From Craspedostauros australis (taxonomy: Eukaryota), in the NCBI GenBank assembly GCA_030167865.1, contig JALAGF010002807.1, forward strand, positions 1 through 58,566: DNA of 58,566 bases, read 5' to 3'. The first letter of the stretch is position 1; every line of letters starts with the position of its first letter. Below, piece by piece: positions 19,638-47,078 of the stretch. The notes beneath the pieces were generated by a model. The model was not told the origin of the DNA. It saw only the letters and a program-made list of their open reading frames with translations, and did no database searches. The translations under genes and the position numbers were made by a program.

Positions 19638-20270
19638 ATGGAAATGGCAAGTCGATCGTCTCATAAATCTGTCGATCGTGGAAGGTGGCCCAGACGGCTT
19701 CGCGCATCGTTCGATTGTGGTGCGGTTTGCACGTCCAGAGACTGGTGCGCTTCTTGCCTGACATCTTTGCGCGATCACGACCTTCCCCTTTCTGAACGCT
19801 GTCATCTGTGTATCCATACTCGTACGTACATGGGAGACCATCGTCATTCTTGCGTTTCTCACATCAATCGGCGCGCGATGCTCTTCTCCTTTCCTGTACT
19901 GCGCTGACAATCCGTCGCATTCCTGTGTGGCAGATCGATCTCATCAAAGTCCTTGCAGCGTGCCGGATTGGCGCCATCGTCCACTTCCGCTCCATTCTGC
20001 CACGGCTCTGAACGTTTGGCACACGAAGCAGCGCAGCACAAACAAGCACAATACCACCTCCTCAAGGATGTTTGCATCGCTCAAGGATCGGGTTGAAAGA
20101 AAGATCAACACTTTCAGGTACGAACTAATTGCTCTTGGCATGTGAAGGCGATGGTCAGAGCATGATGAGGTACTGCGAGTAGCCAATCTGTGCTGACCTG
20201 GTCCATCCTTGCGCACTGACATAGGAATTGTAGGCAATGGAGACAGCAGTGGCGATGGGACAAATGCTGA
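19638..20270 (+). other. Putative 3-exon transcript (19638-19821, 19934-20117, 20225-20270): 137-aa orphan ORF or non-coding snoRNA host gene
   Basis: Two intron-like segments, 19822-19933 (GTACGT, pyrimidine run, CTGAC, CAG) and 20118-20224 (GTACGA, CTGAC, TAG). Removing both keeps one frame open from ATG 19638 to TGA 20268-20270. No protein family recognised. Confidence 0.3.
20162..20219 (+). ncRNA. Candidate box C/D guide RNA targeting U6 snRNA
   Basis: Box C ATGATGA 20162-20168, CTGA 20193-20196 and box D CTGA 20216-20219. The 12 nt directly 5' of box D (CATCCTTGCGCA, 20204-20215) are the reverse complement of conserved U6 UGCGCAAGGAUG. No clear C' box or terminal stem. Confidence 0.5.
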
Positions 20271-20751
20271 AGTACCAATAGAGGGCGGATACGAGTGGAG
20301 GAACGGAATAGTCCATCCTTCCTCTCACTCCTGTCGCGCCATGGTGAAGTCGACGCGACCCATCACATCGCTTGCCCATCCAACCGCCCATAAATCCCAA
20401 CACACCATGATCGTATCCAAATCATTCATCCACAAAAACGCGTCCGTTGGTGATGTGCGTCGCGACCATCTTTTTCGTCAGTCGCGGTTGTGAAGGGTCA
20501 CAACCCAAAGAAATGACCAAACCAATGCTCGTCTGAGCACGCGTGACTACGACTCTTTGACTCACGGATACTCGTACATCAAAGATCGCCCACACGCATG
20601 GCACCACCGAGAACAGAACAACAACATCAACGGTATCGACAGAACCAAGGACACCCAAACCACAAGGCAAATACCAGAGCTGGAGAGAGAGAGGGGTGCT
20701 GCAGCAAAAATCATCGCAAGGTTGCCAACGCATTCCAAGTATTCAGCAGGC

Positions 20752-22494
20752 ATGGTTATCAAACGTCGCAGCTGTTGGTCCTTCGAAGCCACTCCGACTG
20801 CAGCGGCAGTCTACTTCATCGCAGGCGTCTTCCTGGTGTCATCCGTGGGCATTCATCTCCTGCACTCAATCTACGGGTACTCGTATGAACATCTGTACAA
20901 ATATGTCGATCCCTGCCTCGTTCCATCCTCTGCTCGGAAAGATGATGGGGCGGAACCAAGCCAGAATGCCATCGTCCGGGATCAGCCACAAACGAGCTCA
21001 CGTGGAGGAGGCGCTGCCTTCTCGGGTGAAGATGGAACGATCCACAGCCGGTTGGATGAGGCAGCTCCTTTGCTGCCGCTGAATAGGCTCGCACACACGA
21101 TGGCGGATGTTCGGGCTTTGGCGACCTTTCGCAAGGCTCCGCCGTCGATCCTCTCCAATCAGCAGCAGCAGCAACAGCAGCAACAACAACAACAACAACA
21201 ACAATTGAATGAGAACATCCAAAAGAGACCGTATTTGTATCATCCGCCGGGCAGACACTTTGTCACTCCTTCGATCCAACCGCTCATGGGTACGCACCAT
21301 CCAGATTCGGATGCCGTCTTCTGCTTCGTGAAGGGCTTCGGACTCTCTGTCTTCCTCACGCTCATTGAGACTCTGCTGGACACGGGTTACACCGGGGACA
21401 TCGTAGTCGGAGTCAAGTTCCGGAGGAAAGTGGACGCCCGGTTGAAGGACTACCTGCGGTACAGAACGAAATCCACCAATAACACCATCATCGTCTACGA
21501 GATCGGAGGGTGCGACAAGAACATCGACCCAACGAAGATCCGCTGCAGCATGGACGATGTCTACACGCACCCACATACTGGTACGACGCAATCCGGAGCC
21601 GCTGATTTGACTGGCCGCCCGCGCATCGCGAAACGAGTGCGGTACGAGTACTACTGGTTGTGGTCACGGCACTACAATCCGGCCAAGAGCCGCATCCTGC
21701 TGGTGGATGCACGTGATCTGTATTTCCAACTCGATCCGTTTCAACATCAGACTGCCTTCTTTGCTGGGAAGGATGGCTCGGCGCCTCGTCCTCCTTTCCG
21801 TACTCCTGCGAGTGATTCGCGTCTCATTGGGAGCAACGACAACAAAGCGAAAAGCGACGTAGACACTGAGACGATGAGATCAGCAGATCCCACCACCACA
21901 TTCCAAACAGCAGGCATTACTCCAACCACAATACAAGTCTTCGAAGAGAGTCTGGTACAAAAATTGGAAGGATCGCCGATCAACAAGGTCTGGCTTACCA
22001 TGCTCTACAGTTCGTCCATGTTCGAGCAGCTCCGCACATCCGCAAGGATCTGCTCCGGCGTCACCATCGGTGGTGTCGTCGCGATGCAACAGTACTTGCT
22101 GCTCATGCTGCACGATATTGACAACACGCAGGGCACCTACCTGACTGCAGGCGATCAAGGTGTCCACAACGTCCTGGTGCACACCCAGCAGCTGCACAGC
22201 CAGACGGGAATTGACCGTGTCGAGATCGTTCCGAATCGATTCGGTATCGTCTCCACGAACGGCAAGGACAATCCGTTGGAAGGGTTCCGGAATGGAACAG
22301 GGATGGTGCACAACAAGGACGGCACGGTGTCCCCCATCGTGCATCAGTTCGATCGCAGCGAACGTCTGTCCAGCCTCATGAACATGAAAATCAAAGTGTA
22401 TCGTCAACGCGTCATGTCCTGGCTTCGTCAAGAGGAAAAAGGCGAAGAGGCAGCAGAAGCAGAACAAGAAGACGGAGCGCAACAAGGCCAGTGA
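20752..22494 (+). CDS. Type II membrane putative glycosyltransferase (GT-A-like, resembles ESAG3-type proteins), ~580 aa
   Basis: Signal-anchor AAAVYFIAGVFLVSSVGIHLL and a stem containing polyQ; motifs RYEYY, ILLVDARDLYFQLDPF, ICSGVTIG, DQGVHN, IVHQFDR. Confidence 0.75.
   Translation: MVIKRRSCWSFEATPTAAAVYFIAGVFLVSSVGIHLLHSIYGYSYEHLYKYVDPCLVPSSARKDDGAEPSQNAIVRDQPQTSSRGGGAAFSGEDGTIHSRLDEAAPLLPLNRLAHTMADVRALATFRKAPPSILSNQQQQQQQQQQQQQQQLNENIQKRPYLYHPPGRHFVTPSIQPLMGTHHPDSDAVFCFVKGFGLSVFLTLIETLLDTGYTGDIVVGVKFRRKVDARLKDYLRYRTKSTNNTIIVYEIGGCDKNIDPTKIRCSMDDVYTHPHTGTTQSGAADLTGRPRIAKRVRYEYYWLWSRHYNPAKSRILLVDARDLYFQLDPFQHQTAFFAGKDGSAPRPPFRTPASDSRLIGSNDNKAKSDVDTETMRSADPTTTFQTAGITPTTIQVFEESLVQKLEGSPINKVWLTMLYSSSMFEQLRTSARICSGVTIGGVVAMQQYLLLMLHDIDNTQGTYLTAGDQGVHNVLVHTQQLHSQTGIDRVEIVPNRFGIVSTNGKDNPLEGFRNGTGMVHNKDGTVSPIVHQFDRSERLSSLMNMKIKVYRQRVMSWLRQEEKGEEAAEAEQEDGAQQGQ
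21160..21204 (+). repeat. CAG/CAA polyglutamine tract within the glycosyltransferase stem
   Basis: Direct reading; encodes a run of Q. Confidence 0.9.
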
Positions 22495-38160: not shown

Positions 38161-41100
38161 TTATGGGTTGGTTGAGCGAGTGGTGCTGACGCTGTCGCTC
38201 TGGAAGGTCATGTGATGTGCGTTGCTGGACACGTTGTTGCCGCCAGAGATCTTGTGCACGACGTGTTCTGGGAGCGGGAACTCGTGGCGTTCTTCACTGT
38301 CTTCCCCGTCGGGGACGCTGATGGTGATCTTGGTGCACTTGTTGGTAACGATGTCTGACATCTGCATGCCATCCTCTGACAGCCAGAGGGTGAGGACGTC
38401 GGTTTTGTCGAGTTGGTAGGCTGGACAGGTTCCCGTGCCTTGCAACGCAAGCTTCTTGCACTTCAACACCTTGCAGTCCTTGGTGATGCTGTCAAACACG
38501 ACGTTGATCTTGGTGCACTTCTCCACCAGCAGCGACTTCATCATGCAACCATGGATCTGCACACAGACATCGTGACAGTTGACGATGTGCACCTTCTGGG
38601 TTGGATCGAAGACATGGACAGTGACGACCATCTTCTCGCCTTGGTCAGCGCTGCTGTGTCCCTTGTTCTTCTTGGACTTGCTGCCGAAGATTCCGCGGTT
38701 GCCTCCCATGGGCTTTTGATTGGCGATGATCCACTTCCTGTTTTCCTCGCGGAACAGGACCATGGGACTGTTGGTGACCTTGCCGTGCTTCTGTCCTCGC
38801 TGCAACAGCGACATCGGACTGGTGGACTTGCTTCCCACGCTGTTGCCGCTGCTGATGTGCTTGCTCTTCGACACCGGTGACATTGCCGACGGTGCTCCGG
38901 CTGGTTGGTAGTTCTGGGAGCGGAAGTTACGATCGTTTCGTGCCGCTAGACCCGACGACTGATGTTGATGTTGCTGCTGGTGGATGGGTTCGTCGTTGAA
39001 AGAGGACGTGAAGGCGAAGTGCGCGCCAGAGTTCACTGGAAATCCCGGTGTATCATGCATGTTCTGCTTCGAATTCAGATGGCGCTGTTGCTGCGCACGG
39101 GTTGGGGATCCGTATCTGTTCATGCGCCGAGATGATGGCAGGCTCTGGGACTCGCCGTAGTATCCCATTCCACCTTGGTGGTCGGATGGTCGGCTGCCCT
39201 CAAAACGTTCGCCGTTGGCCAACGATTCCGGGAAGTCGAAGCGATCACCCTCGCTTGGTGCTGCATGTCCGCGCTGATGCACCTCGTTGTTGCGAGGCGA
39301 AATGAAGTGTTCGTCTTGACCGTCGATGGCTGCATTGAAGTCGCCAGCATGTTTGTGCTCGCTGCTCGCCATGGGTTCCTCTCGATGACTGGCATCCTGA
39401 GCTTCCGATTGGCGATCTCCACGACGAGATCTTGGCGGTTGCAGAGGCGGGCGTCCTGGGACAATGTTTCTCTTGGGGGTGTCTGGATCGTTGTCAATGG
39501 TTGACTTCTTGCCGCCGAACATTCCCAGAAAACCGCCTCGAGATTTACGTTTGGTGTTCGACTTCTGTTTCTCATCCTCCTTCACTTCGGACGATGCTGT
39601 TGCTGCATCGATTGGTTCCTCAGACTTGGTCTCCTCGGCCCCGGCAGACTGCAATAAATAGACGTGTGTATTGAGCAGGCATGTGTTAGTTGAGAGGAAG
39701 ACAATCGTATGTTAGAGGAGAAATTGATCAGAGGAACATAGTTCAACAACAGCATTGCCGTATTTGTTGCTGCATTTGTTTCGCACCACTCATCTTGTAT
39801 GGTGTGTATCAGCATGTTGTCGCACAAACGTGAAACTGCGGTCCATCCAGCGATATCGAGTGCATCCACATTTGATCGACACTGCACGCATCATGCCAAG
39901 TGCACAATCATCGTCTCACTTACCTTTTGGGTCGCCGTCACTTCGCCGCCGATGTCTACGTCAATCTCCTCGTTGATTTGTTCCACTTCCATCCCGGTGT
40001 CACTGTCGAACAGCATGCCGTCACGCCCGGCGACGGGAGTGGAGACGTCTCCGGATGCCCCCATGTATTCGCTGAGGAGTGCATGCACGCATTCGTTGCT
40101 GGTGCCCTCGTGACACTTGTTCATCAGTGCGGGAGTTTTCTTGGGCGTAAGCTCGAGCAACAAGGCGACGCAAGCGAGGTTCTTCGTTGCCCCGATCTTG
40201 CAGGCGTAGAACAGGGCCGTGTTGTCGTGCTGATCAGTGGCCGTCCAGTCCGTCCATCGCTCGGTGTTCAGCATCTGAAGGGCATCGAAGTCACCAGCCT
40301 TGGCTGCATCCCACTGCGTGATGATCTGACCGGGAGTCTTGTCGGTGTTGAAGCTTTTCATCGAGGCCGCAGCCTTGCTGGCCGTTCCAACAGAACCGCT
40401 GGTCTTCTTGGAGGCGACGGACTTCGTATCTGCATCCTCGGCCTCGGCTTCTGGAGCTGCAGCCTCTTCTGCATCAGTATTCGCGCTTGGCGAGGTCACT
40501 ATACTGCCGGTGATTGCGGACATCATGCTCTTGGCCATCGAGGCGACGCTGCCGACGTCAATGGAATCCAGGGCGTCGACGATGTTCCTTGGGACGTCTT
40601 CGGGCAGCTCCGTGTTGCTCTCTGCGGTAGCCTTTTCGGACTTGTCGGCGGCCGTCGCCTTCTCTTCGACCGCCTGTTCTTGAACTGCCTCTTCGGCGGC
40701 ATTGGCCGTTGGCATGTCAGCAACCGGTGGGGATGGTTGATCGGCCTCGAGATTGCCAGGAGCCGTGATGGGTGCACTCGGCGGTGCCGCCTCTTCGACC
40801 TTGCTTGGTACGCGGGAGGCCACACTTGCTTTGGATCTGGCAGATGCCGCAGTCGCCTTCGACTTCTGCGAGGCGACCGACGCCTTCGACTTGCGAGAAG
40901 CAGAAGACGCCTTGGACCGTTTCGACAGGGCGGACATCTTCGAGAGGAAGGAGGACTTTGACGCTTTCGAAGAGACCGATGCGGTATCACCGCCGTCCTG
41001 AATCTCGGTATCTTTCTTGAATGCCACAGACTTGGTGTCAGTGGATGTGACACCTGCATCATTCGCGCCATCATCGGCGGTTGCATTGGACAATGCCACG

Positions 41101-42479
41101 CTGTTGCTCGCGCCGGCGCTGTCAACCTTGGCAGACGCTGTTGATTTGGCGGATTTCGTCGACTTGACGGAATGCTTACTCTTCACGCTGACCGTGCTGG
41201 CGTTGTCAGCCTTGGCAGAAGCTGCCGATTTGGCGGATTTCGTCGACTTGACGGAATGATTGCTCTTCACGCTGACCGTGCTGGCGCAGTCAGCCTTGGC
41301 AGAAGCTGCTGACTTGGCGGATTTCGTCGACTTGACGGAATGATTGCTCTTCACGCTGACCGTGCTGGCATCACATTGGGCCGGCTCTTGCGTTGAGACG
41401 GCCGCTGACTGGATAGACTTTTCTTCCGCCGACGCAACTGGGACTGGCGGAGGCTTTGTGGAATTCTTGGATGCCGATGATGCAAAGCTGACGAAGCTAC
41501 CTGCCTTCTTCAGAGCATCGGGCTTTGGAGAACCAGGGGCTGCGGCCTCAGGCTTGCTGATGGTGGCCTTCTTTGCGGAGGTTGCCTTGGATGACTTCGA
41601 TAGGATAGACTTGAATGGTGTGGTGGACTTGCGAGACTTGCCTGACATGAACGACTTGGCAGACTTCGTCGATTTCACAGATTTCTGTGACTTTGCGGAC
41701 ACAACGCTGACGTCGCTCTTGACGTTTCGCAAAAGAGCAGGAGACGGTGAAGAATCCAGCTTGTTGAGGGCGGACTCGGCGGTGTCCACAGATTGGCCTG
41801 GCGGATCGGTACCGTCGGTTTTGGCGATGGCAACAGCAGCAGGTGTGCCTTCCGTTGACGCGGACAGCGTGCTGATCTCAGTCGCCCGTGCACCGGTAGG
41901 GGTGTCCTCGATCAGAGTTACCTCGAGCTTGTAGGTCTCCTTGGAGATATCGGATTGAATAGGTGCGAATTCCTCCAATGTGCTGGCTGCCGGTGGTTGG
42001 TCTCGCTCTTGGGTTTGGGTGTGTGCCTGCTTGGCGACGGATGCTGCGGCAGTATTCACCCCAGAAGAAGCCGCTGATGTGCCAGCGGCTGGGACGGTTG
42101 GGGCTACCGTGTCCTGCTGCGTGGGCGACCCGATGAATGGGGCCATGAAGTTGGCTGCGGCAACTGTGTAGTCCTGTGGCGTCTCTCCGCCGTCCTCGCC
42201 ATCGTCTCGGCCCTCTTCCTCCAGCAGTGGGATTCCCAAGGTTGATCTCATGGAGTACAGGTAGGACACGAACTCGTTCGCCTGCTGGTACGTTTTGTCG
42301 ATCGCCACCTCGATCTCCGACTTGATGGGCGTGCGGTTGTCGATCTTCTGGGTGTCGAAACTCTCCATGCTGGCACATTGGAACATACCCGCGACGACGC
42401 TCGCATTCGATGGTGGAGACGACGTCACCGTGAGGCCGTCCTTCCCATTGATCGTCTCCTTGGGGGCTGTGGGGGTCAT
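38161..42479 (-). CDS. Large low-complexity protein with ankyrin repeats and a C-terminal cyclase-associated protein (CAP_C/CARP) domain, ~1347 aa; exons 42479-39924 and 39648-38161
   Basis: A phase-0 intron 39923-39649 (AAG|GTAAGT...TTGCAG|TCT) joins two ORFs, and the downstream ORF has no ATG near its 5' end. Ankyrin-like WDAAKAGDFDALQML and DQHDNTALFYAC; CAP_C-like VHIVNCHDVCVQIHG...LVEKCTKINVVFDS...QGTGTCPAYQLDKTD...EFPLPE. Confidence 0.8.
41121..41369 (-). repeat. Three tandem 84-bp coding repeats (28 aa, ASTVSVKSNHSVKSTKSAKSAASAKAD-x)
   Basis: Units start at 41121, 41205 and 41289 and are near-identical in DNA. Confidence 0.95.
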
Positions 42480-43665
42480 TGTGCTCTCCTCCTACTGCTG
42501 CGAGGCTCCGTCCTTTGCTCTGGTACAGCTCGAGGTCGCGCCCTTGCTTCCTCTATCGATGTTGTGCGGATGTGCGTTTGTGGGGGGAAGATGTGTGTTG
42601 TGTGGTACTTTGTGACGAAAGGTTGTGGTGAGGTATGTATGGGGACTGTGCTGCAGCCTCTTGCGCGTTGGACGATGGCTCCTTCGCTGTTGATTCCTTC
42701 CGTTGCGTTCCAATTGAAGCCAATCGGTTTGTGTCGGAGGAGTTGTGGCCCCACCGAAGGTTGGATGCAGTTGTCAGCTCCTGTCCCTGGTCTTGTTGCT
42801 GTTTCGGTCTCGTTTTCGCGGTCTTATTCTCGATCAGCACGGCGGTTTGGTTGATTGTGTGAGTTGGGCGTCATCATTTCACATTGGTCGCGTTGCGCGT
42901 TCGTGCCTTGTGCTTTGATTTCTGTTGTCCGTCCGTGTCCGCCCAACGGATGGATTGTGTTCTCTCGGGTGATATAGACGTTTACAGACGTTATTTGTAA
43001 TAATAAAATCAAGATTCAGCGACGGCACATCGTTGCTCACTTCGCTATGTACTCTCCTCAACGGAGAATATGCGAGAAGTTTAGCTTGCGCAACTCCCGC
43101 CAAATCCGTCGAGGCCAGGCGGACAGAGAGGAGATTGGAGGATTGTCACTTTTTGGCGGTGGCAAAAGTTACGTTTCCTCACTTCGCGCATAGGAAGCGT
43201 TTCAACGTCCCCAAAGAGTGATGGTTGGCTGTTTCGTGTGGTCAAGTAGTTCTCATGTCACGAGGCTATCGCTATTGGAAGGGGATCAATGCTTCACAGG
43301 ACACCTCTCTCTCTCTCTCTCTACCCAGGCGCAGGAAGTCATAAGTAACTTCTTGAACGGTACCAGAAATCAAAGCAGAATGTGCAGAGCAGAGAAACAT
43401 AGAGTGAGACCTGTGGTACTATTCCATTATTACATATTGCTACACGGAGAGTAGAGAGAAGGACTTTGCGCAATTTAGAGTACGTACGTATTCTCTCTGC
43501 TGGTAGAGCGCAGCTATACAGCATGTACGAAGATAACGTATACTTCTCTAGGACGAATAATCTCGTAGACGCTGCCAGCCAGAGTACAAGCTAATCCACT
43601 CCACATACTCTCCTCGACCATGTTCGGACAACACCACCACCGTGCCTTTGGATTGGCACCACCAG

Positions 43666-46326
43666 TTATTGTTCCCATTCCGACGAGCTGCTGGTCTCGT
43701 GCGACACATCGTCGTCGTCGTCAACGTCATCATTGTCGTCACTGCCTTCGTTGCTGTTGTTATTGTTGTTGTCGCAGTCAAGACGTGCGCGAGCCCGCGT
43801 CGTGCGACGGGTTTCGGGAAGGTGCAACGATGGTGTGGCAGGATTGTCGCGTCGGTAGAGTTTGCGCGAATCGCGGAATGCTTGCGCTGTCTTCATGAAG
43901 CATCGGTTGATGTCGAATTCCAACCAAAGATGCTCGTCCCTGGACCATTCCAGAAACGATCCATTGGCGGCGAACACTGCGCTGCAGACTCTCGATGTGA
44001 CATTCTTCTTGCCGTTCGGGAGCTTGGTGGTGTCGTACTCCCTGCCCCATAGATTCAGAAGTTTGTGGAAGTAGCGATTCCCCGGCCAGTGCATGGAGAT
44101 GGTGAGATGCGAGCGGCCGCAGATGACGTCTTCCAAAGTGGGCAACCGCCCATTCTTGTCCTCCAACCCCTTCCAGGTCTCCTGGGGGTCTGGTACCTGA
44201 TCGAGCTCGCCGAGAAATTCCTCGAAGGTGGGTGCCCCGCCGAGACTGACCGAGTCAAGATCTATCGATGGAGATGTCTTCACGGATCGTTCCGGTGTTG
44301 CCGATGTATCGGGTGATTGCGACATCGATGATGCCTTGCGCCTCTTGCGGAGACTGCGTCGCGCTGGTTGAGTATCGATGCTCTCGTGGTCGCGGTCATC
44401 GGCCGAGTCTCGATCGCTGTCGTTGTCGGCTCGTTCATTCTCGGCGAGGGTGCCTCGGAGCCGTTTCGATCGTTGTCCTGGGGTCTTCGGGTTGCTGTGG
44501 TGTTCGATCGTATCACCAGCGCTCTTGCGTTTAGCGCGTTGTTTTCTTGGGGTTGATGTCGGAAACGTCTTCCGCCTGGTCCTCCGTGCTGGCAAGACGA
44601 AGGAGTCGTCGCTGCTTTCATGCATGGTCGAGCTATCGTCAGCCTCGTGAGCATCGCCGTCGCCTTCTTCGTCTTCTCCCCGCGATTTGCGCGTCGATAT
44701 AGCTGATGGTACAGATAATCTCTCTGGTGGGCGCTTCTTTCGACCTGTAGATCTCCTTTGAGGCGTAATTCTGGTAGATGCCGATTGTTTGGTGTCAATC
44801 TGATCGGGGTCACCAGTGTCTTCATCAGCGTCTTTATCAACCTCCTCGGTAACACCCTTCTCAGCCTGTTCGTCGGCCTCGCCGCCAGCATCTGCCTCGT
44901 TGTCGCTGCTGGCATCTGGCTGTGCCTTGGCAGGTGTGCCAGTCTTGCTGCTCTCGGCATCACTGGTACCTCTGTCTACAACTGTTTTGGAAAAGAGTGC
45001 ACCATCATACAGGACTTTCGATCGCAGATCGTCTTCGTCGGCTTTCGGGATGTCCCATCGGCTGCCCCGTAAGATGCTGTCGTTGTTGTTACTGTTCCTG
45101 CCTCCTCGTTGTCGAAGTCGTCTTGATCGCCTCACACGAAACGGGGGCATGCGAGCAATCCTCTCAGCAGGCGTGGTCGCGGAAGGTGGCACGCCCAGTG
45201 CTTCCATGACCAGAATTGGGTCTGCATGCCCAATTTCATTACCCACAGACCCTCCTGCATGTCCTTTTTCGGCTGGCACCAACAGTTCTGACAAACTCGG
45301 TAACTCATGCGACGCCTCGACCAATGGCTGGCTGAATAGATCTTGTGCGGTTTCGTTGATCGCCATCTCGTCAGCTGGTTGATCGCGACGCATCGCAACT
45401 TGCTTCCTGTGTCGCAAAACTCGATGATGCAAGAACTTATCCCACCGCCCAGGTGCCGATATGGCCATGTTATGGACAAGACTGGGATCCCTCCGCAGGT
45501 TCTCGAATGCCAATCCCGTGCTGAGGTAGTGGCGCAGCCGTGGCTGCAGACGCTGCTCGAGCGACGCTCCAAGAATCGATGGATCGTTGATGACGAAGGT
45601 CCTGGTGGTCTCCCAGCTCCCCTCGAGGCACTTGTGCTGCACGAACTGGATGGCTGGCTCCATGTTCTTTTCCGGATGATACTTGACCAACGTCGGGTGG
45701 GCGATGAGCATGGCACCCAGCCGTTCGTCCGATACGAACAGACGCTGTTGCAGCCACATGAGGCGCGGTTCCAAATCCTCCTCCAGATCCCAATCGACGA
45801 TGTGCGGACAGTGCTTCACGATGTTGTCGATGGCCTCCTTCCCCAGCTTGAACCACCGATGGAAGTACTCGTGAACATGGGTCCAGTTGCCATGATCCGC
45901 CAACGATTCCAGCCAGCTGTTCGGATGACAGGTCCTGTCGGTCCTGTTCTTAGCAACGCGTCTCCTCGTGGCCCTTTTCGTGAACCTCCCTCCCGTCCCG
46001 ATGGCCGCCGCATCCATCGTCGCGTCCATCGACGCTGATGCGTTTGCGGTATTGTTGGTGGTGGTGGCCGTGGATGCGGATCCCAAGGCTGCTGTTGCAT
46101 CATCGAAGATGCTTCTGCTTGGCCCTGTCGATATGGCATGGCCGGTGCCCGATGAATCAAATGTGCTACTCGTTGTACGATCATCGGTTTCATCCAGAAA
46201 CGACCAATGATCGGCTTCGGCAGAACTGCCAGCCTGCGACGGATGGGATGATTCGTGCAGAATGCTTGGGAGGTAGCGAACGCAGAAAGGTGCGGAGACA
46301 GGCTCCGTTGCTCCAAATGTGCTCAT
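43666..46326 (-). CDS. Protein with mTERF-like repeats and a C-terminal DUF6824-like domain, 886 aa
   Basis: mTERF-like LEEDLEPRLMWLQ, HPTLVKYHPEKNMEPAIQFVQ and DPSILGASLEQRLQPRL; DUF6824-like DVICGR...HWPGNRYF...GSFL...W...KTAQAFRD; basic/acidic linker. Confidence 0.78.
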   Translation of the reverse strand: MSTFGATEPVSAPFCVRYLPSILHESSHPSQAGSSAEADHWSFLDETDDRTTSSTFDSSGTGHAISTGPSRSIFDDATAALGSASTATTTNNTANASASMDATMDAAAIGTGGRFTKRATRRRVAKNRTDRTCHPNSWLESLADHGNWTHVHEYFHRWFKLGKEAIDNIVKHCPHIVDWDLEEDLEPRLMWLQQRLFVSDERLGAMLIAHPTLVKYHPEKNMEPAIQFVQHKCLEGSWETTRTFVINDPSILGASLEQRLQPRLRHYLSTGLAFENLRRDPSLVHNMAISAPGRWDKFLHHRVLRHRKQVAMRRDQPADEMAINETAQDLFSQPLVEASHELPSLSELLVPAEKGHAGGSVGNEIGHADPILVMEALGVPPSATTPAERIARMPPFRVRRSRRLRQRGGRNSNNNDSILRGSRWDIPKADEDDLRSKVLYDGALFSKTVVDRGTSDAESSKTGTPAKAQPDASSDNEADAGGEADEQAEKGVTEEVDKDADEDTGDPDQIDTKQSASTRITPQRRSTGRKKRPPERLSVPSAISTRKSRGEDEEGDGDAHEADDSSTMHESSDDSFVLPARRTRRKTFPTSTPRKQRAKRKSAGDTIEHHSNPKTPGQRSKRLRGTLAENERADNDSDRDSADDRDHESIDTQPARRSLRKRRKASSMSQSPDTSATPERSVKTSPSIDLDSVSLGGAPTFEEFLGELDQVPDPQETWKGLEDKNGRLPTLEDVICGRSHLTISMHWPGNRYFHKLLNLWGREYDTTKLPNGKKNVTSRVCSAVFAANGSFLEWSRDEHLWLEFDINRCFMKTAQAFRDSRKLYRRDNPATPSLHLPETRRTTRARARLDCDNNNNNSNEGSDDNDDVDDDDDVSHETSSSSEWEQ

Positions 46327-47078
46327 CTTGCCGCTGCCGTTGCCGTTGCCGTTGGCTGTGGTAGCGTGGAGGAACGGAGCAGAGCAATATTACACTTTTC
46401 GTAATCGCGGAACGTTCTGCGCTTGTGCTGGTTCGACGAGTCCTCCGCCAGAATCTTCAATGGTTGGATCAGTGCAAGTGAATAACATCTGTCGTTTCGT
46501 CTCGCAAAGGCGATGGTGTTGATCGTGTTGAACGTGTTGAACGTGTTGACGTTGTTCAAAGGAGAGCACCAAGGGCAGATTGTGGTGCTCTCCACACAAG
46601 GGGAGGACAACGGGTTGTTCCTCTCCTTGGTTCGTGCGCCCCCTGCTGGCGTTGCAGAGGCGTTTGGGTTCCAAAACAGAGACCAAACTGTGGATTTGTG
46701 TTCTGTTCTTCGTCTCGGAAACGCGAATTGCTTTTTGTGTGAGCATTTTACGATCAACGAGTGCGAGGAGAAGAAGACGGACAGATGAAGTCCCAATCGA
46801 TCATGAATCGATGTTGCGTTTTGGATCTTGTTGACACCTCCACGTACTACTACTATTCCACATGCGAGTCGGACGAGATAGCGTCACTGTATTCCTCTTT
46901 TGTGATGTTCATCGTTGTGGTGGTGATACACGTACATCCCCACAGGGATGGCAAGTCCCCATCACATCCATCACAACTATCGCAACTCGCACAGCTAACA
47001 CAAACAACATCACAATCAGCAATCAGCAATCGAAGGCCAAAAAGAAGCACAACAATACCCACGACAAATACAAGAACA

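Follow-up and report, generated by a model that had tools for sequence, protein, structure and literature searches.

A 58-nt segment of Craspedostauros australis DNA (nt 20162-20219, + strand) probably specifies an intron-borne, minimal box C/D RNA that would guide methylation of a C in the pentaloop of U6 snRNA; judged from its sequence, this reading is given a probability of about 0.6. The segment lies in contig JALAGF010002807.1, and the 58,566 nt of this contig that were analysed are referred to here as the window. The predicted RNA would most likely be archaeal-sized, about 58-62 nt, and of the small nucleolar or Cajal-body type. Box C/D guides for U6 are a known kind of RNA, and in a plant one has been assigned to the equivalent nucleotide. 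In favour of a guide are the rarity of the arrangement, the coincidence of the predicted target with a 2'-O-methylated nucleotide (Nm) of Arabidopsis, the clustering of Nm in the U6 internal stem-loop, and the non-coding, intron-like setting. Counted against a canonical guide are the missing terminal stem, the degenerate C' and D' boxes, the very short length and the crowded 3' splice site, together with the failure of P. tricornutum U6 to pair fully and the fact that C68, the corresponding human nucleotide, is not a human Nm site. The features of the locus, from left to right, are as follows.

nt 20068-20117, + strand: putative upstream mini-exon, starting at an ATG (from translation of both spliced forms)
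nt 20118-20233, + strand: putative spliceosomal intron (from sequence signals)
nt 20162-20168, + strand: box C, ATGATGA, a perfect RUGAUGA (read from the sequence)
nt 20169-20182, + strand: possible 5' spacer or second guide, GGTACTGCGAGTAG (aligns to the first guide of the archaeal sR33 and sR36 models)
nt 20183-20186, + strand: D' position, which reads CCAA and is degenerate, with 2/4 matches to CUGA (from the sR33 and sR36 alignments)
nt 20190-20196, + strand: C'-like box, GTGCTGA, with one mismatch to RUGAUGA (from the sR33 and sR36 alignments and the sequence)
nt 20201-20215, + strand: antisense element, with the core 20204-20215 = CATCCTTGCGCA (from complementarity to U6)
nt 20216-20219, + strand: box D, CTGA, which also reads as CTGAC (4 or 13 nt before two candidate acceptor AGs)
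nt 20752-22494, + strand: downstream protein gene, the possible host gene (from the ORF and its homologues)

Read along the + strand, nt 20162-20219 consists of ATGATGA, GGTACTGCGAGTAGCCAATCT, GTGCTGA, CCTGGTC, CATCCTTGCGCA and CTGA. Box C and box D are spaced 47 nt apart, the antisense element (12 of 12 positions complementary) abuts box D, and, counting upstream from the terminal CTGA, the fifth base is G20211. The motifs had been noticed in a first-pass annotation made from the letters alone, and the positions it gave are correct (ATGATGA at 20162-20168, CTGA at 20193-20196, CATCCTTGCGCA at 20204-20215 and CTGA at 20216-20219, all on the + strand), as is its remark that both CTGA boxes can be read as CTGAC, each being followed by a C. 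Its interpretation of these motifs as a U6 guide survives in part: the box layout, the 12-nt antisense element and the fifth-base target all stand, but the assumption that diatom U6 carries UGCGCAAGGAUG finds no support in the published diatom sequences, and a terminal stem is absent.

The reverse complement of nt 20204-20215 is identical to U64-G75 of human U6 (sequence from the PMC2396436 supplement). In the alignment of the same supplement, the corresponding segment of human, Arabidopsis and two Phytophthora U6 RNAs, GGCCCCUGCGCAAGGAUGAC, forms 12 of 12 pairs with the guide. Two additional pairs that had been suggested are feasible as well, since G20201 and T20202 can pair with C77 and A76 of U6 if C20203 bulges, giving 14 nt in total. 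Under the rule that the methylated nucleotide is the one paired to the fifth base upstream of box D, G20211 stands opposite the C equivalent to human U6 C68, and this earlier assignment was confirmed when the numbering was checked on human U6. In the internal stem-loop of U6, C68 occupies the fourth position of the pentaloop GCGCA. U64-A70 is a base pair of the U6 stem according to the available text of PMC13109388, and would be the pair that closes the loop.

The predicted target is also a mapped site of modification in a plant. Eight Nm were detected by RiboMeth-seq in Arabidopsis U6 (U27, A43, A48, C57, C63, A65, G75 and G84), and Cm63 was assigned to the C/D snoRNA SnoR26 (both from Table 3 of PMC8053127). 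When the Arabidopsis U6 numbering was rebuilt from the alignment rows, 8/8 listed Nm bases fell on the right letter, and C63 corresponds to the same loop C as human C68, and the human counterparts of C57 and A65 are C62 and A70. Human U6 likewise has eight Nm sites (A47, A53, G54, C60, C62, C63, A70 and C77) in the available part of PMC7960923, where C68 is absent from the list, and no paper on U6 Cm68 or C68 was found in the literature searched. The snoRNA tables of O. tauri give A45, A51 and U38 as the only U6 sites, and the loop C is not among them. More generally, snoRNA-guided Nm are concentrated in the internal stem-loop of U6 in human, S. pombe and Arabidopsis, as described in the accessible parts of PMC7960923, PMC10484740, PMC13109388 and PMC8053127.

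The first-pass annotation had treated UGCGCAAGGAUG as the sequence of U6 at this position, which is true of human, Arabidopsis and Phytophthora but not of T. pseudonana, which has UGUGCAAGGAUG, or of P. tricornutum, which has UGAGCAAGAAUG (PMC2396436 supplement). In the alignment from this supplement, T. pseudonana U6 (GGUCCCUGUGCAAGGAUGAC) forms 11 Watson-Crick pairs with the guide and one G-U pair at G20213, and P. tricornutum U6 (GGUCUCUGAGCAAGAAUGAC) forms 10/12 pairs. One of the two mismatches in P. tricornutum is only two positions away from the target; in this species U-A replaces both sides of the pair that is C62-G72 in human U6, and the loop contains an A. As a perfect match to canonical U6 is very unlikely to arise by chance, it is argued that position 66 in the U6 of C. 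australis would be C or U, and position 72 would be G. Across the stramenopiles of supplement file 3 of PMC2396436, the second base of the U6 pentaloop is C, U or A, and the catalytic U6 loop is less fixed in diatoms than is usually assumed.

Among the best 120 relatives of the DDX41-like helicase encoded in the window, all matches that name an organism are diatoms. In a quick, single-gene DDX41 tree of 27 rows, which did not include P. tricornutum and in which the nearest row has 87% identity, the organism of the window is placed among raphid pennates, beside Nitzschia, Fragilariopsis and Cylindrotheca. P. tricornutum is itself a raphid pennate.

The layout of the candidate is compact: box C, a 14-nt spacer, a degenerate D', 3 nt, a C' with one mismatch, a 19-nt spacer that carries the guide, and box D. 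The internal CTGA (20193-20196) sits inside GTGCTGA, and may also be read as a branch-point-like CTGAC. Of the two box assignments open to it, C' (as GTGCTGA) appears better than D', because the latter would stand just 7 nt ahead of the guide, with nowhere for a C' box to fit. The candidate had been described as lacking an obvious C' box; a C'-like GTGCTGA is in fact present at 20190-20196, but with one mismatch to the consensus. It had also been said to lack a terminal stem, and here the description is accurate, the best duplex between flanks of 4-12 nt having an energy of 0 to -1.0 kcal/mol. The wider flanks (the remaining intron) give a duplex of -13.9, whereas the shuffles average -16.8 (sd 3.4) and 81% of 500 of them do at least as well, and the fold of the whole region has z = +0.21 against shuffles. 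At 58 nt the candidate is shorter than the human U6 guides. The four snRNA-targeting C/D snoRNAs of O. tauri are 97-184 nt, and so far longer than the candidate.

A search of Rfam, which the first-pass annotation had named as a check, returned 0 matches at the gathering threshold anywhere in the window. This covers the U6-guide families snoU6-53, snoZ30 and SNORD94 (RF00377, RF00288 and RF00613) as well as every other Rfam C/D family. At E values up to 10, the only models to align are those of archaeal sR33 (RF01120) and sR36 (RF01124), with sub-threshold scores of 12.6 and 9.6 bits (gathering thresholds 37 and 55). Both are 55-nt models, and their order of C, guide, D', C', guide and D is in register with nt 20158-20221; the resemblance is, however, confined to the boxes, and unlike these archaeal RNAs the candidate is eukaryotic and has a spliceosomal RNA as its target. 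The spacer at 20169-20182, which the two models align to their first guide, showed no target in a by-eye comparison with U6 and U2, where it formed only 6-8 interrupted pairs.

The boxes had been placed in an intron-like segment, and at the level of splicing signals this is borne out: a GT (20118-20119) follows CAG, giving the 5' splice site CAG/GTACGA, and acceptor AGs are found at 20223-20224 and 20232-20233, for a putative intron of 107 or 116 nt. It contains two CTGAC branch-point-like motifs, both within the candidate RNA, and its polypyrimidine tract is weak. A search for a host splice consensus, from pairs of ORFs and motif scans in the window, gave no confident introns. The putative mini-exon, spliced to either acceptor, opens an ORF of only 28 or 31 codons, and is for this reason probably a non-coding leader or an upstream ORF. 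Of the 8 ORFs that surround or overlap the element, none has a Pfam match below E 0.05, in agreement with the earlier description of the region as apparently empty, and given that there is no Pfam-supported coding overlap the element lies in apparently non-coding DNA. The window as a whole encodes eukaryotic proteins of ordinary types, in long frames with almost no introns.

The setting is apparently, and most simply, the 5' leader of the gene at 20752, or otherwise a separate non-coding transcript. This gene belongs to a 666-codon frame, in which the first ATG (20752) is followed by a signal-anchor-like segment and no Pfam domain was found. Residues 262-666 of the protein have 7 weak homologues (28-30% identity), the sole organism-naming one of which is from a diatom transcriptome, and the family appears to be diatom-restricted. 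A first homology search with the ORF had returned no homologues. The ORF (20494-22494) includes a run of ~15 glutamine codons (about nt 21160-21205, + strand), and this run probably swamped the word index in that search. Upstream of the mini-exon there is a second intron-like segment (nt 19822-19933, + strand; 112 nt), with GTACGT, a pyrimidine-rich run, CTGAC and CAG but without box motifs, which suggests a multi-intron non-coding leader.

All of these features might be accidental, the locus being an ordinary short intron or an unspliced 5' leader that yields no stable RNA, and in which ATGATGA and a U6-complementary 12-mer happen to coincide. The 12-mer alone is indeed at the chance level: allowing up to one mismatch there is 1 match against an expectation of 0.58, and at least one match also turns up in 45 of 100 shuffles. 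Nor is a snoRNA required to explain a CTGA close to an intron's 3' end, as CTGAC fits the branch-point consensus, and one is to be expected here anyway because the only branch-point-like motifs lie inside the candidate RNA. The absent terminal stem, the structure that does not go beyond shuffles, the zero matches to Rfam families, the lack of a homologue among the listed metagenome matches and the mismatched U6 of P. tricornutum all fit this explanation, and very many windows were scanned, so that some coincidences at the ~1e-3 level are expected overall. Set against this, the 12-nt antisense element and the arrangement of the boxes, taken together, go beyond chance. The window has 24 ATGATGA on both strands, and 10 pairs (40 under relaxed criteria) of a C box and a CTGA spaced 35-125 nt apart; a perfect 12-mer against the ~100-nt U6 directly before such a CTGA is expected ~6e-5 times (2e-4 relaxed), and the figure becomes 4e-3 to 1.4e-2 when rRNAs and snRNAs of every kind, ~6000 nt in all, are admitted as targets. 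Even if all 410 CTGA of the window are counted and no C box is required, the expectation for U6 is 2e-3. The composite motif TGATGA-N20-50-CATCCTTGCGCACTGA, searched for in prokaryotic and viral sequences solely as a chance control, gave one match in 596 Gb of prokaryotic genomes (a Sulfuritalea MAG) and zero in the viral collection. The 16-mer of guide plus box D occurs at no fewer than 119 metagenome loci (at least), and among those listed 0 have TGATGA 20-80 nt upstream and one has it at 18 nt; the listed matches look bacterial, and carry little weight either way for diatoms. Finally, ~13 of the ~106 positions of U6 are Nm in human or Arabidopsis, as far as they are given in the sources cited above, so that a target would land on such a site by coincidence in ~1 of 8 cases, and the site predicted here is one that has been mapped in a plant. 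Coincidence is on balance an unlikely account of the locus, though one to be taken seriously.

A further explanation, which is considered quite improbable, is that the segment belongs to a C/D RNA of another build or with another target, such as a longer RNA of ~109 nt, an rRNA guide, an orphan, or a decayed relic with an inherited match to U6. Another CTGA (20267-20270) lies 105 nt after box C and would be usable as box D, in which case the U6 element would stand upstream of D'. In addition, the GGTACT that adjoins box C on its 3' side (20169-20174) can pair over its full length with AGTACC (20271-20276), which immediately follows this CTGA. A decaying copy would show just such degenerate C' and D' boxes and a missing terminal stem. 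As to targets, Arabidopsis SnoR26 was first assigned to rRNA sites that were later found to be unmethylated, according to the available text of PMC8053127. The 109-nt form would, however, have 47 nt between box C and D', and would run across both candidate acceptors. An RNA of this length, ending in the CTGA at 20267-20270, was rejected on its geometry: judged by the established geometry of K-turns, the 6-bp stem does not lie on the side of box C that a K-turn requires. A direct repeat of 10 nt, GTCCATCCTT, occurs at 20201-20210 and 20311-20320 (+ strand) and overlaps the 5' part of the guide. It is probably a chance repeat, ~0.7 of which are expected in 1.2 kb.

If the segment is a U6 guide, as is preferred here, the RNA would be carried in a short intron of a non-coding 5' leader upstream of the gene at 20752-22494. 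The intron would be spliced out and debranched, and exonucleases would trim it to the part shielded by a core of Snu13, Nop56, Nop58 and fibrillarin assembled on boxes C and D. The 12-nt element at 20204-20215 (14 nt with the one-base bulge) would then pair with U64-G75 in the opened internal stem-loop of free U6, and fibrillarin would methylate the 2'-OH of the pentaloop C opposite G20211 (human C68, Arabidopsis C63). A bolder version, which has little probability, would have an archaeal-size, stemless C/D RNA in which the D and C'-like boxes double as branch points of its own intron, and a guide that tracks the rapidly evolving pentaloop of diatom U6. The lariat branch would in that case form inside the guide RNA, and assembly of the snoRNP and splicing of the leader would either compete or be coupled. 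If true, it would supply a naturally occurring series in which a catalytic snRNA and the guide for its modification co-vary, with C, U or A as the second loop base.

Among known U6 guides, Arabidopsis SnoR26 shares the target nucleotide predicted for the candidate (C63), and the Arabidopsis U6 segment is the exact complement of nt 20204-20215 (target from the available text of PMC8053127). The D-box rule points to this pentaloop C, so at the level of the target the candidate would be functionally equivalent to SnoR26; the likeness is one of target site. The plant families of Rfam had no match in the window. A second comparison is with S. pombe sno530, which, in the part of PMC10484740 that is available, is likewise a guide for the internal stem-loop of U6; it pairs, through 12 complementary nt, with the part of U6 that the candidate would address, and its boxes are not closed by a hairpin. 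It was validated by knockout, and sets a precedent for a non-canonical U6 guide (same source). In contrast to the candidate, in which C' and D' are degenerate, sno530 has a degenerate C box (one base off the consensus); it targets Am64 (human A70), which lies 2 nt further 3' than the C predicted for the candidate, and it is an independent non-coding transcript (PMC10484740, available text). The human guides SNORD67 (Cm60), SNORD94 (Cm62), SNORD10 (Cm77), and SNORD7 and SNORD8/9 (A47, A53) resemble the candidate in being intron-borne C/D RNAs that act with fibrillarin and have U6 sites clustered in the internal stem-loop. They differ in that none targets C68 in the portions of the sources available, and no Rfam model of these families matches the window.

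Should the candidate be real, it would be the first diatom guide for U6 modification to be described in the literature searched; a catalogue of diatom snoRNAs was not found in the literature listing searched. The U6 pentaloop C, which the sources available show as methylated in Arabidopsis so far, would then be methylated in stramenopiles as well, pointing to an old modification that animals and yeasts have lost or in which it has gone unnoticed. The candidate would also be a useful extreme case for the minimum size of a eukaryotic C/D RNP, and for an intronic snoRNA with a branch point inside it. Since diatom U6 differs in the loop, the guide and its target could serve as a simple test of co-evolution. 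The small, stemless build may be worth a look.

Two other stretches of the window show C/D-like motifs. The nearer one (nt 20450-20536, + strand), ~230 nt downstream of the candidate, has GTGATGT, with one mismatch to box C, and a CTGA 77 nt later. Two copies of the palindrome ACGCGT flank it (20437-20544) and pair in the predicted fold, which has a z of -0.8, and the stretch is without Rfam support (the best match, to sR15, has 14 bits and E 3, and is offset). The other is on the - strand at about nt 42780-42877, between the minus-strand ORFs 39891-42491 and 43666-46389, and has an ATGATGA with CTGA both 40 and 100 nt downstream; this may be another C/D candidate, in a leader or an intergenic region.
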